This document shows positions 585 through 6,347 of a stretch of DNA of 59,507 nucleotides, one piece after another (position 1 is the stretch's first letter; the number at the start of each line of letters is the position of its first letter). This stretch comes from Bacilli bacterium (GTDB lineage: Bacteria > Bacillota_I > Bacilli_A > RF39 > UBA660): contig JAGARQ010000009.1 in the NCBI GenBank assembly GCA_017622175.1, forward strand, positions 1 to 59,507, in the 5' to 3' direction. The position numbers and the translations under genes were made by a program. Under the pieces are notes generated by a model that was not told where the DNA came from, ran no database searches, and saw only the letters and a list, made by a program, of their open reading frames with translations.

Positions 585-978
585 TATAAATCAACTGTTC
601 ATATGATACTTTTTTGTCAATAGCACCATAATCTAACATAATATCTTGTAAATGATTAAAAGATTCTTTACTAAAATCGGTAGTAATTGGCCAAGCATCA
701 ATTTCTCTATATCTTTTAATTGCATTTTCTAAATCAACAAGCGACGTATCTGGAAATTGTTTAACAATTATTTCAGCAATTTCTTTATCGCTATGTGAGT
801 GTACAAAGTCTAATCCCTTTTGAATAGCATTTGTAAAATCTTTAATAATCTCACTATTATTTTTTATATAACTATCTCTTGCAGAATAAGAAGTATAAGG
901 AACAATACCACCAATTTCTCCTATACTTGCAACCACATATCCATATCCATTATTTTCAATATCTGATGCATTAGGTTC
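577..978 (-). CDS. 3' segment of the split NMT1/THI5-like (YtlA-like) ABC substrate-binding gene
   Basis: Frame is open from GAA at 978 (EPNASDIENNGYGYVVASIG...VPYTSYSA...LQDIM); continues the 6332-6916 segment in frame after excision. Confidence 0.92.
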   Translation of the reverse strand, partial: EPNASDIENNGYGYVVASIGEIGGIVPYTSYSARDSYIKNNSEIIKDFTNAIQKGLDFVHSHSDKEIAEIIVKQFPDTSLVDLENAIKRYREIDAWPITTDFSKESFNHLQDIMLDYGAIDKKVSYEQLIYNE

Positions 979-993
979 TCTTAATGCAACAAA
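961..993. repeat. Left att junction (host arm, TC core, element arm TTAATGCAACAAA)
   Basis: atctgatgcattaggt-TC-tc-ttaatgcaacaaa; element arm is the exact reverse complement of 6315-6327. Confidence 0.9.
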
Positions 994-1036
994 TATAAAA
1001 AAAACACAAAAAAGTATTTAACAAAAAGAATAAATT

Positions 1037-1045
1037 TGTTATAAT
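1037..1045 (+). promoter_or_regulatory. Extended -10 sigma-A-type promoter for the TasA-like gene
   Basis: TGTTATAAT about 50 bp upstream of the ATG at 1097. Confidence 0.55.
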
Positions 1046-1096
1046 CAATATGTATAACATATAAAGATAGGAAGTATGTTAGGAAAGGAAATTTAT

Positions 1097-1747
1097 ATGG
1101 AAAGAAATAGAAGTTCAAAAATTATTGCAGTAGTAGCTCTAGTAGTTGCTGTGTTTGGTCTTACATTAGGATTCGCTGCATTCTCAAACACATTAACAAT
1201 TTCATCTAGTGCATATGTTAGCCCTAGTAGTGAAAATTTCAAAATCGGATTTTCAAAAAGTGCCTCAAGTGCAACAGAAACAGGTGCATTAGCAGGATCT
1301 CCAACAGGAGCTGCAACAGCAGGAAGTGCTACACTAGCAGGAACAACTGTAAGTGGTCTTAAAGCAAATCTTACAGCACCAGGAGAATCAGTATCATATA
1401 CATTCTATGTACATAATACTGGAGAATATGATGCATTCTTAAATAGTATCACATTCGAAAACGTAGCTGGAGGATCTGCTCCAAAAACTTGTACAGCAGT
1501 AGACCCAACTAAAACAACTGCAGCATTAGTAAGTGCAGCTTGTGAAGATATCTCTGTATCAGTAAAAGTTGGTAATGATGCAGCAGTAGCTGGTTCAGTA
1601 GCTGCTGTTACAGGACACTCTTTATTAAAAACAAAGAATGAAACTGTAGTTGTAACAATCTCATATGCATCAGATGGTGACAGAGCCGATGGTGACTTCA
1701 ATGTAGCATTTGGTGACTTAAAACTAGTTTACGGAACAGTTGATTAA
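1097..1747 (+). CDS. SipW-class signal-peptide protein, TasA/CalY(camelysin)-like fibre subunit candidate
   Basis: Hydrophobic leader ending LGFAAFS-NTLTI; LTAPGESVSYTFYVHNTG motif; Ala/Gly/Thr/Ser-rich with two Cys; next to a SipW gene; AGGAAAGGA RBS favours ATG 1097. Confidence 0.7.
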   Translation: MERNRSSKIIAVVALVVAVFGLTLGFAAFSNTLTISSSAYVSPSSENFKIGFSKSASSATETGALAGSPTGAATAGSATLAGTTVSGLKANLTAPGESVSYTFYVHNTGEYDAFLNSITFENVAGGSAPKTCTAVDPTKTTAALVSAACEDISVSVKVGNDAAVAGSVAAVTGHSLLKTKNETVVVTISYASDGDRADGDFNVAFGDLKLVYGTVD

Positions 1748-1754
1748 AATAACT

Positions 1755-1787
1755 AAGGCACAAATCAAAATTTGATTTGGTGCCTTT
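1755..1787 (+). terminator. Stem-loop after the TasA-like gene (terminator or mRNA-stabilising hairpin)
   Basis: AAGGCAC-AAATCAAA..TTTGATTT-G-GTGCCTT inverted repeat. Confidence 0.6.
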
Positions 1788-1816
1788 CCTAGTATATTAG
1801 ATATAGGAGGGAAAGG

Positions 1817-4403: not shown

Positions 4404-4409
4404 TAAATA

Positions 4410-4442
4410 AAAATCATATCCTAAACTAGGATGTGATTTTTT
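4410..4442 (+). terminator. Hairpin between the fibre module and the recombinase gene
   Basis: AAAATCATATCCTA-AAC-TAGGATGTGATTTT followed by T run. Confidence 0.6.
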
Positions 4443-4461
4443 ATGTACAAAAAAGGTTTAT

Positions 4462-5385
4462 ATGGATCTATATAAAGTAAGACAAGAATTAATGTTAGGA
4501 AAACAGATAACGAATGTACCATTAAGAGTAACATATTATTCAAGAGTATCCACAGATTCAAAAGAACAAATAAACTCATTAACTAATCAAGAAAATCATT
4601 TTAAGGAAATGATAAATAATAATAAAAATTGGATTTATATAGATGGATATAAAGATGAAGGCCTATCAGGAACATCATCCCAAAAAAGAAATAATTTTAT
4701 AAAAATGATAAATGACGCTAAAGAAAATAAATTTGATTTAATAATAACAAAAGAAATATCTCGTTTTTCTAGAAATACTTTAGATAGTATAAAGTATACA
4801 AGAGAATTATTATCATACGGAGTAGGTATACTGTTTTTTAATGACAATATTAATACAATTCTTCCAGATAGCGAACTTCGTTTAACATTAATGTCATCAC
4901 TTGCACAAGAAGAAATAAGAAAATTATCAGACAGAGTTAAATTTGGTATGCATGAGTCAATCAAAAAAGGGAATATATTAGGTAATCAAAAATTATATGG
5001 TTATAAAAAAGATAAAGTATTAAATAAATATATAGTAAATAAAAGACAAGCTAGTATTATTAAAGAAATATATGAATTATATGCAAATCATAATAAAACC
5101 CTAAGAGATATAATAAAAATACTTGATAGTAGAAATATTAAAACTATTAATAATAAGAATTTTTCTCCATCATCATTATCAAGATTAATTAAAAATCCAA
5201 AGTATAAAGGATATTATGTTGGTAGAAAAAGTGAAGTAATTGATTACATCACAAGAAGAGTAAAACAACTTCCAAAAGAAGAATGGATAATATATAAAGA
5301 AGAAAACATAGTCCCATCAATTGTTTCAGAAGATTTATGGAATAAAGCAAATATACGTCTAAATAAAAGAAAGAAGTTTGACTGA
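4462..5385 (+). CDS. Large-serine-recombinase family protein (catalytic + recombinase domains, no zinc ribbon)
   Basis: YSRVST catalytic Ser, DEGLSGT, KEISRFSRN, LAQEEIRKLSDRVK, LYGY, NPKYKG, PSIVSEDLW; ends at 307 aa. Confidence 0.93.
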   Translation: MDLYKVRQELMLGKQITNVPLRVTYYSRVSTDSKEQINSLTNQENHFKEMINNNKNWIYIDGYKDEGLSGTSSQKRNNFIKMINDAKENKFDLIITKEISRFSRNTLDSIKYTRELLSYGVGILFFNDNINTILPDSELRLTLMSSLAQEEIRKLSDRVKFGMHESIKKGNILGNQKLYGYKKDKVLNKYIVNKRQASIIKEIYELYANHNKTLRDIIKILDSRNIKTINNKNFSPSSLSRLIKNPKYKGYYVGRKSEVIDYITRRVKQLPKEEWIIYKEENIVPSIVSEDLWNKANIRLNKRKKFD

Positions 5386-5406
5386 CAAATAGTTATATGT
5401 TATAAT
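5378..5406 (+). promoter_or_regulatory. Sigma-A-type promoter for the orphan gene at 5433
   Basis: TTGACT (5378-5383), 17 bp, TATAAT (5401-5406) with TG extension; overlaps the recombinase stop. Confidence 0.75.
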
Positions 5407-5432
5407 ATGCCTCGATTTAGGGGTGAATCATT

Positions 5433-6305
5433 ATGAAAAGTTTATTAGATTTTGAATTAATAACAAATGAAGTGTTTTACAGAGGTTGGCATATTTTAGA
5501 ATATATTGAACATCATCCAGATATGCCACCATTAGAAAGAGAATCAATTGAAGCAACAATTATGGAAGCATTAGTTTCAAAAAAACTAATTGATCCTAAA
5601 AAAGAGTCATTAGATTTAAGTAACTTATCAATTGTTCTAGACAAAGACCATTACTGTTATGAAGAACACCCAAGAATAAGTGGAATTCCATTATGGATGA
5701 AAGAAAAGTTTAGAAATAAAGCGGTTTATATTATTGGAAGCGTACCAATATCTTTAAGATTATCTAGACCACCATCAAAAGTAAGTAGATCATGTGTATA
5801 TGATCCAAACTATGCCATAAGTTCAATTTTTGATGATGCTACCTTTATAGAAGCAATTTATGATTCTCCAACAAGACCAGGTATCAGATTAGAAGAAACA
5901 AGACCATTTGTAGAAGTAAAAATTGATGGAGTAGACTATTTAGTTGATGTATTAACAAAAAGAATTTTAAGAACAGACTGGTTTACTAAAGAATTTAATA
6001 TGGAAATAAAAAGTTCTATAACTGTAAGTAAAGCAGATAAAGAAAGTAAAAGAAGATATCAAAATGCAATTGCAAATTCAAATAAATTAGGAGAAATGAT
6101 TCCTCTTCTTGAACCACTAATTGATACAATATCACCAAGTATGGCTGAATACCGTTATGAGTTTGAAAAAACTAAAGAAACATTTCCAGAAGAATGGAAA
6201 ATTGCCGATGCAGTTAAACAAGATATGCAACTAAGAATGTCCGAAGGTTTAGACTTTAATTTAAACTTCTTACAAAAAATCCATGAAAAGAAAAAAGATG
6301 AATAA
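5433..6305 (+). CDS. Hypothetical protein (element cargo)
   Basis: 290-aa ORF with GGGGTGA RBS, own promoter and terminator; no signal peptide. Confidence 0.8.
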   Translation: MKSLLDFELITNEVFYRGWHILEYIEHHPDMPPLERESIEATIMEALVSKKLIDPKKESLDLSNLSIVLDKDHYCYEEHPRISGIPLWMKEKFRNKAVYIIGSVPISLRLSRPPSKVSRSCVYDPNYAISSIFDDATFIEAIYDSPTRPGIRLEETRPFVEVKIDGVDYLVDVLTKRILRTDWFTKEFNMEIKSSITVSKADKESKRRYQNAIANSNKLGEMIPLLEPLIDTISPSMAEYRYEFEKTKETFPEEWKIADAVKQDMQLRMSEGLDFNLNFLQKIHEKKKDE

Positions 6306-6317
6306 TCATCTTTTTTT
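6291..6317. terminator. Probable bidirectional intrinsic terminator overlapping the right att arm
   Basis: AAAAAAGATG-AATAAT-CATCTTTTTTT. Confidence 0.65.
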
Positions 6318-6347
6318 GTTGCATTAACATCAAATAATGAAACAAAA
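6315..6347. repeat. Right att junction (element arm TTTGTTGCATTAA, TC core, host arm)
   Basis: tttgttgcattaa-ca-TC-aaataatgaaacaaaa. Confidence 0.9.

Follow-up and report, generated by a model that had tools for sequence, protein, structure and literature searches.

The split transporter gene and its junctions

The DNA analysed here is a stretch of 59,507 nucleotides (hereafter, the window) from contig JAGARQ010000009.1 of a Bacilli bacterium assembly (GCA_017622175.1), close to whose start a transporter gene is divided in two by a 5.35-kb element encoding its own serine recombinase. The split gene lies on the minus strand and encodes an NMT1/SsuA-like ATP-binding cassette (ABC) substrate-binding lipoprotein (Pfam NMT1). 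Its N-terminal part (195 codons) occupies positions 6332-6916, and its C-terminal part (132 codons) positions 577-976, base 976 completing the Glu codon GA-A. Once rejoined, the two halves read ...FVSLF-E-PNASD... and are colinear with the 328-353-residue open frames of uninterrupted orthologs, which confirms the reading FVSLFEPNASD that a first-pass annotation of this DNA had given across the site. Precise excision would restore an intact conserved open reading frame (ORF), as is expected, by sequence, of a gene-intervening element.

The sites at 962-993 (attL, the left attachment site) and 6315-6346 (attR, the right one) are the junctions of this element within the NMT1/SsuA-like gene. On the plus strand, attL consists of TCTGATGCATTA (962-973), GGT, TC (977-978), TCT and TAATGCAACAAA (982-993), and attR of TTTGTTGCATTA (6315-6326), ACA, TC (6330-6331), AAA and TAATGAAACAAA (6335-6346). 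Each junction thus presents a TC core, GA in the orientation of the gene and the inferred crossover dinucleotide, with a 12-bp motif placed 3 bp off on both sides, and the element-specific DNA extends from 979 to 6329, the distance from core to core being 5,353 bp. The element-left arm, P (982-993), is TAATGCAACAAA, and the element-right arm, P' (6315-6326), is its reverse complement, the two arms belonging to a perfect 13-bp inverted repeat (981-993 versus 6315-6327). In the host arms, 10/12 and 11/12 bases agree with the 12-mer of the element: the first, B' (962-973; host-left in the first-pass annotation), adjoins the C-terminal gene part, reads TAATGCATCAGA outward from the core and codes for PNASD on the minus strand, and the second, B (6335-6346; host-right), adjoins the N-terminal gene part and codes for FVSLF on the same strand. 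The pair 964-993/6315-6344 was also recovered by an independent repeat search. When each half-site is numbered from the core base adjoining the arm (position 1), the shared 12-mer falls at positions 5-16 in all four arms, so that the earlier claim of one motif placed symmetrically around TC holds for every arm, with the outward sequences exactly as they had been given.

A scan of the whole genome (1,429,997 bp, both strands), which had been suggested as a check of that claim, finds only three exact occurrences of the 12-mer, two of them at the ends of the element, with match frequencies of 2.45e-5 at one mismatch or fewer and 2.46e-4 at two or fewer. Dyads formed by two arms separated by 8 bp, with at most two mismatches in each arm, are found at the two junctions only. 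Allowing three mismatches per arm adds 10 others, against roughly 6 expected by chance, and no secondary site was found in the scan. The junction pattern is not due to chance.

The crossover dinucleotide and the shared landing codon

Compared in register, attL and attR are identical at TC alone, their neighbours differing on both sides (T/A and T/A). The corresponding empty sites read TTT-GA-ACC in 5/5 uninterrupted orthologs (G005, G006, G008, G010 and G011), host sequence reaching the dinucleotide from both sides. Taken together, these two observations argue for strand exchange at that dinucleotide, and the TC/GA core is a well supported candidate for the crossover point. The first-pass annotation had attributed the sites to a serine recombinase acting on a 2-bp core in direct orientation. 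The element does encode such an enzyme, the comparison places the exchange at TC, and both cores are in direct orientation, an arrangement that would result in excision.

This gene is split behind the same GA in 22 genomes, which belong to at least 17 genera. Eight of these genomes were reached through relatives (G000-G004, G007, G017 and G018) and 14 come from a family survey, in which 19 of the 150 listed rows had short open frames; G129, being a contig end, was dropped, leaving the landing codon interrupted in 18 of the 150 listed rows, across many genera. The short frames of G108 (contig C12) and G135 (contig C41), like that of G129, had been considered as truncations or insertions and were rejected, all three lying at contig ends. 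GA follows the N-terminal part in 22/22 genomes and is found at both ends in all 16 genomes from which both junctions were recovered, the elements at this shared site ranging from 3.2 to 22.7 kb. Of the 14 interrupted loci added by the survey, 12 have a serine recombinase gene on the opposite strand, at 0.3-1.6 kb from the N-terminal junction, and the sequence retrieved for the other two (G087 and G140) showed none. In this family of gut Bacilli with small genomes, one codon of a transporter gene is used widely as a landing site.

In G002 and G003, a different element of 22.7 kb occupies the same dinucleotide (19075-41770 of contig C9 in G002). Its recombinase, 57% identical, is encoded at the opposite end, and the inner motif is another one (TAGTGTCTAGAT); the different motif and recombinase placement point to an independent capture of the same site.

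A recombinase reduced to two domains

The sole recombination gene of the element (4462-5385, plus strand) encodes a short serine recombinase of 307 residues. The protein contains a Resolvase domain (residues 25-171; PF00239, E 3.3e-28), in which the catalytic YSRVST motif is kept, and a complete Recombinase domain (residues 196-303; PF07508, E 6.3e-20, profile positions 3-102 of 102), and no others. Its NCBIfam matches, to CcrC, CcrB and XisF, are partial and far below cut-off, over the first ~300 model positions. The zinc ribbon and coiled-coil are absent, the ORF stopping at residue 307, and in the orthologs from G004 and G017 PF13408 is found from residue 314. Over residues 1-305 the enzyme is 55-72% identical to its orthologs from G001 (310 residues), G007 (305), G004 (468) and G017 (513), the short forms ending at residues 302-307, within the linker that joins recombinase domain and zinc ribbon. 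Window 1-8000 holds no remnant of the coding sequence for the missing zinc ribbon and coiled-coil. This truncation had escaped the first-pass annotation.

A recombinase tree was built from the best 120 database relatives and five genome sequences (125 tips). In it, 21 short-form tips (302-317 residues) form one clade, with support 0.986, nested among full-length enzymes, and the remaining short forms are found elsewhere, five of them as isolated sequences and the others in two clades of 4 and 2 tips. Short forms end at the same linker in no fewer than three distinct clades (21, 4 and 2 tips), so that trimming of this kind may repeatedly have led from a mobile integrase to a domesticated excisionase. 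As regards the second short clade (P0213, P0219, P0220 and P0191), 26 of 401 genomes of the order match P0219 at E <= 1e-125, with a short frame in none of them. A search of metagenome contigs for more short-form elements gave 3 distant loci only. Inspection by eye of the DNA preceding the recombinase gene found nothing convincing as a sporulation-type promoter.

Nei-Gojobori estimates, which are rough in such AT-rich DNA, gave ratios of non-synonymous to synonymous substitution (dN/dS) of 0.20-0.25, at dS 0.67-0.97, for pairs of the short recombinases of G000, G001 and G007. For pairs of the gene halves of G000, G001, G007 and G004, the ratio is 0.11-0.21 at dS 0.68-1.40, with no stops. On these estimates, the short enzyme and both gene halves are under purifying selection. 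The dS of other element genes is similar to that of host genes, a likeness which supports an insertion predating the species split. These values fit an element inserted before the present species arose, a host gene that would still be needed and a recombinase probably still under selection.

Inner and outer motifs of the attachment sites

In the model for large serine integrases described by Rutherford et al. in 2013 (PMC3783163), the recombinase domain contacts ~13 bp next to the core, with the same placement assumed in attP and attB, and the zinc ribbon reads a 9-bp motif located at positions 16-24 in attP and 11-19 in attB. A motif common to all four half-sites is what that model leads one to expect of the inner region (PMC3783163). 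The architecture of the present sites, with the inner motif in all half-sites, is ordinary for large serine recombinases, and the motif alone would amount to an ordinary textbook serine-integrase site.

Related elements with full-length enzymes carry, in addition, an outer motif in both attP arms, with the consensus ...AaGAAgTCaC at positions 17-26. AAGTCAC, matched at 6/7 or better, is found at position 20 in 5/13 P arms and 8/19 P' arms of these elements, and at position 15 in 10/22 B arms and 0/16 B' arms; the displacement from position 20 in attP to 15 in B is the 5-bp inward shift predicted by the published model (PMC3783163). The identity between P and P' over the outer region (positions 17-28) is at least 8/12 in 9/13 full-length elements.

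The three short-form elements present another picture. Their outer P/P' identities are 4, 4 and 6, versus ~3.6 expected by chance, and their inner identities (positions 5-16) are 12, 12 and 11, versus a mean of 8.7 in 13 full-length elements. AAGTCAC is found at position 20 in none of the short-form arms, the best match being 6/7 at position 18 in P' of G007, and the arms of the window element hold no outer motif, with a best match of 5/7 at position 24. Across species, the inner 12-mer is 9-12/12 identical and the conserved zone comprises positions 1-16 of each half-site, the next 15 nucleotides matching at 4-8/15 in 11/12 comparisons (the exception, 11/15, is P' of G001 and G004). Both arms of the G001 element show a C to T change at motif base 6, and the P' arm has a few A residues beyond the ~32-bp site.

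The working site in the short-form lineage is thus probably ~32-40 bp long, as judged from these alignments, and the truncation of the recombinase is the likely reason for its shortness. The complete site of about 32 bp put forward by the first-pass annotation finds comparative support in this lineage; as a general rule it does not stand, the attP of full-length relatives reaching ~position 27.

Cargo genes and the 290-residue neighbour

The cargo of the element is an operon on the plus strand (1076-4403), conserved in G000, G001, G007 and G004. It encodes a secreted protein of 223 residues with a weak immunoglobulin-like match (1076-1747), preceded by a strong sigma-70-like promoter (1018-1045), a membrane protein of 375 residues with a C-terminal SipW/archaeal-type signal peptidase I domain (1817-2944), and a DUF5305 protein of 489 residues (2934-4403). 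It presumably resembles the SipW-dependent secreted-fibre operons. Among related elements, that of G004 has an extra 363-residue ORF at its left end, on the opposite strand, and that of G007 a run of ~100-residue ORFs and larger genes between its 285-residue gene and the junction; in these two elements the cargo turns over and the ends stay fixed. A 265-residue gene common to G001, G007 and G004 and a 178-residue gene of G017 gave nothing above threshold in Pfam.

Downstream of the recombinase gene, at 5433-6305 on the plus strand, a gene encoding a protein of 290 residues occupies the place that the zinc ribbon and coiled-coil take in the orthologs, and it is kept in all three short-form elements. 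Its own strong sigma-70-like promoter (5378-5406, plus strand; 11/12, TG-extended) has a -35 hexamer that contains the recombinase stop codon. The protein belongs to a separate conserved family, with 162 relatives and an invariant cysteine (Cys121) in the motif CVYDPN. Its AlphaFold model (predicted local distance difference test score 90.5) is a confident one and resembles only weakly the folds of protein-glutaminase, NTAQ1 and LapG-type cysteine hydrolases, and the family may represent new papain-like amidases or peptidases. The possibility that this gene is the detached C-terminal half of the recombinase was considered and rejected: the best scores against recombinase C-termini are a blastp E of 3 and an hmmsearch E of 0.048, the family has no adjacent recombinase in 13/15 genome loci, and its fold matches are papain/transglutaminase-like, with no PDB match at E <= 0.001.

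Proposed mechanism of excision

We consider it probable, at about 70%, that the two sites are the attL/attR pair of a 5.35-kb non-phage gene-interrupting element from a short-enzyme lineage, in which the outer motif has decayed, the site measures ~32-40 bp and excision would proceed without a directionality factor. According to this reading, the 12-bp motif (positions 5-16) would serve for inner recognition, the recombinase domain contacting each of the four half-sites at one and the same place, and strands would be exchanged at the 2-bp TC/GA core. The recombinase would have lost its zinc ribbon and coiled-coil in the lineage of G000, G001 and G007, and the outer motif that these domains read in relatives would have decayed. 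The short enzyme would bind the half-sites via its recombinase domain and a lysine/arginine-rich tail, located beside the A-rich end of the motif, pair attL with attR and delete the element as a circle, and the transporter gene would be rebuilt with its GAA codon (Glu196).

The coiled-coil normally blocks recombination between attL and attR (LxR) and promotes that between attP and attB (PxB). With this lock absent, no directionality factor would be needed by the short enzyme. In line with this, the LI integrase deprived of its coiled-coil is described as one that "becomes promiscuous", with similar PxB and LxR activity (PMC5499577).

Excision might also be tied to sporulation and be specific to the mother cell, as described for skin, SPbeta and gin (PMC5595907), a possibility raised by the presence in the host of Spo0A (274.7 bits, cut-off 200) and SpoIVA (499 bits, cut-off 459.9). 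The spoIVA gene itself, found in two pieces with overlapping profile coordinates (contigs C18 and C51), was considered as a second split gene and rejected; both pieces stop at contig ends, which indicates an assembly break and not an intervening element.

A more specific proposal, tentative and somewhat less than an even bet, is that the two-domain recombinase is a working factor-independent excisionase on ~32-40-bp sites, kept to rebuild the split gene, perhaps in the mother cell, its outer motif lost and its inner motif perfected by co-evolution.

Several points weigh against the main reading. The dS values are near saturation and an element could be exchanged horizontally between close species, and the conservation of the host arms is explicable by the protein sequence (GDFVxLFEPxA) alone. 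The ABC ATPase gene of the same operon (minus strand, window 1-590), which follows the split gene directly downstream, is also broken, after ...LSGGMRQRV at window ~168, its other half being found at the very end of contig C25 of the same genome. Window 1-167 is unique sequence with no second copy in the genome, and the ATPase orthologs are uninterrupted in G001, G007, G004 and G017; this break might reflect another insertion, or else a junction at the contig edge that varies among strains, and because of it the operon may not function here even after excision. As for the enzyme, the coiled-coil-less laboratory form is reported to have given only "a small fraction" of products (PMC5499577), and the literature searched contained no report of recombination by an enzyme, natural or engineered, lacking the whole zinc ribbon.

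Neither is the contrast between short and full-length forms a clean one, since 4/13 full-length elements (G004, G002, G003 and G148) have an outer identity of 5 or less and no ungapped outer symmetric block, and the three short-form elements derive from one truncation event, which makes n effectively 1. Finally, the excision product was not seen. The public runs, 24 from 7 studies, consist of Logan contigs throughout, and in the 4 that were examined, one from each of 4 studies, the contigs, which cannot show rare variants, bridge both junctions in the occupied form (4/4). A joint from 912 to 6320 in X4, present in one contig with 33 letters on its short side, is perhaps the empty site of a relative recovered via similar arms, and is too weak to use.

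Alternative explanations

The alternative that survives best, although we regard it as unlikely, is that the sites are fossils: a full-length ancestor would have integrated the element, truncation would have immobilised it, the motif would be a relic, and the short protein would have been kept for some other purpose, for instance as a DNA-binding regulator of the element. Such a history would account for the occupied form being the only one in the 4 runs and for the broken ATPase gene of the operon. It would likewise suit the presence of the element in 6/8 species of the genus, and the efficient synapsis of the studied enzymes, as PMC5499577 describes it, needs the zinc ribbon and coiled-coil. 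However, the gene halves have remained open, with a dN/dS unlike that of a long-dead gene; the inner 12-mers of both element arms have been preserved across species while the adjacent DNA was randomised; the two G001 arms share the same C to T change; and the recombinase has intact catalytic motifs and the low dN/dS given above.

Much less probable is that the short enzyme depends on a helper, which could be a full-length serine recombinase encoded elsewhere in the genome, or the 290-residue protein acting in trans. Three other serine recombinase genes do exist in the genome, but they are only 25-29% identical; and although the 290-residue gene stands exactly at the former place of the zinc ribbon and has been retained in 3/3 short-form elements, its family is unlike recombinase C-termini, usually lives apart from recombinases and has weak likeness to a papain/transglutaminase fold, not to that of a DNA-binder.

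A DDE-type transposon, with the 13-bp repeats as terminal inverted repeats and TC as a 2-bp target-site duplication, would explain the perfect repeats and the same dinucleotide at both ends, but can be practically discarded, given that the element has no transposase and a serine recombinase as its single recombination gene, the host arms bear the same motif in mirror position, 22 genomes are inserted at the same dinucleotide of the same codon, and in relatives the motif is shifted between attP and attB in the way typical of serine integrases.

Significance

The novelty of this system would reside in a naturally truncated recombinase, apparently still under selection, together with a matching loss of the outer motif, the activity of the enzyme being a prediction. 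The shared landing codon provides a natural experiment, in which related elements at one codon have enzymes that either keep or lack zinc ribbon and coiled-coil, with parallel differences in the sites. Should the short enzyme prove active, a catalytic and a recombinase domain would suffice for site-specific deletion, and the combination of a small recombinase (coding sequence ~0.9 kb) and a small site would be of interest for genome engineering. The element would also document the trimming of a mobile integrase into a one-way excisionase during domestication.

Comparison with known systems

The att sites of the Listeria innocua/A118 integrase, as described in PMC3783163, share with those of the window a 2-bp crossover flanked by imperfect inverted half-sites and an inner region (positions 1-12/13) that the recombinase domain contacts at an identical location in attP and attB. 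Their outer motif, placed 5 bp further out in attP, has its counterpart in the relatives of this element. The enzyme of the window differs in lacking both zinc ribbon and coiled-coil, an outer motif is absent from the attP-derived arms, and the shared motif extends as far as position 16, without a mismatch in either element arm.

The gin element in gerE, with GirC/GirX (PMC5595907), and skin and SPbeta are similarly non-phage elements lodged in a coding gene whose frame is restored by precise excision, with an element-encoded recombinase and a host that has sporulation genes. The target differs, being here the gene of a transporter binding protein and not a known sporulation gene. GirC is described as a full-length enzyme of 58 kDa working with a directionality factor (PMC5595907), in contrast to the 307 residues of the present recombinase, for which no factor has been identified and whose excision activity we infer from sequence.

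The small resolvases and invertases (gamma-delta, Tn3 and Hin) have a comparable catalytic domain (E 1.5e-11 to gamma-delta resolvase) and short dyad sites. They bind DNA through a helix-turn-helix of ~40 residues instead of the ~110-residue recombinase domain found here, depend on accessory sites or on enhancers, and do not insert elements into genes. With its 307 residues and full PF07508 domain, the window enzyme falls outside this class of ~180-200 residues with a C-terminal helix-turn-helix only.

Tn5397 (TndX) and Tn4451 (TnpX) also use an enzyme of the large serine recombinase family and have a central GA in the target, as described in PMC4430133. However, these are resistance transposons that move by conjugation or mobilisation, their enzymes are full-length and their choice of target is looser, whereas this element has no transfer or resistance genes and one fixed site. 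In Tn4451, the ends are similar to the target sequences.

A parallel to the predicted behaviour is the LI integrase without its coiled-coil, in which the directionality module has likewise been lost and which, as PMC5499577 describes it, would predict factor-independent and similar PxB and LxR activity. That construct was engineered and kept its zinc ribbon (PMC5499577), while the form described here is natural, has lost both modules and would have persisted through speciation.

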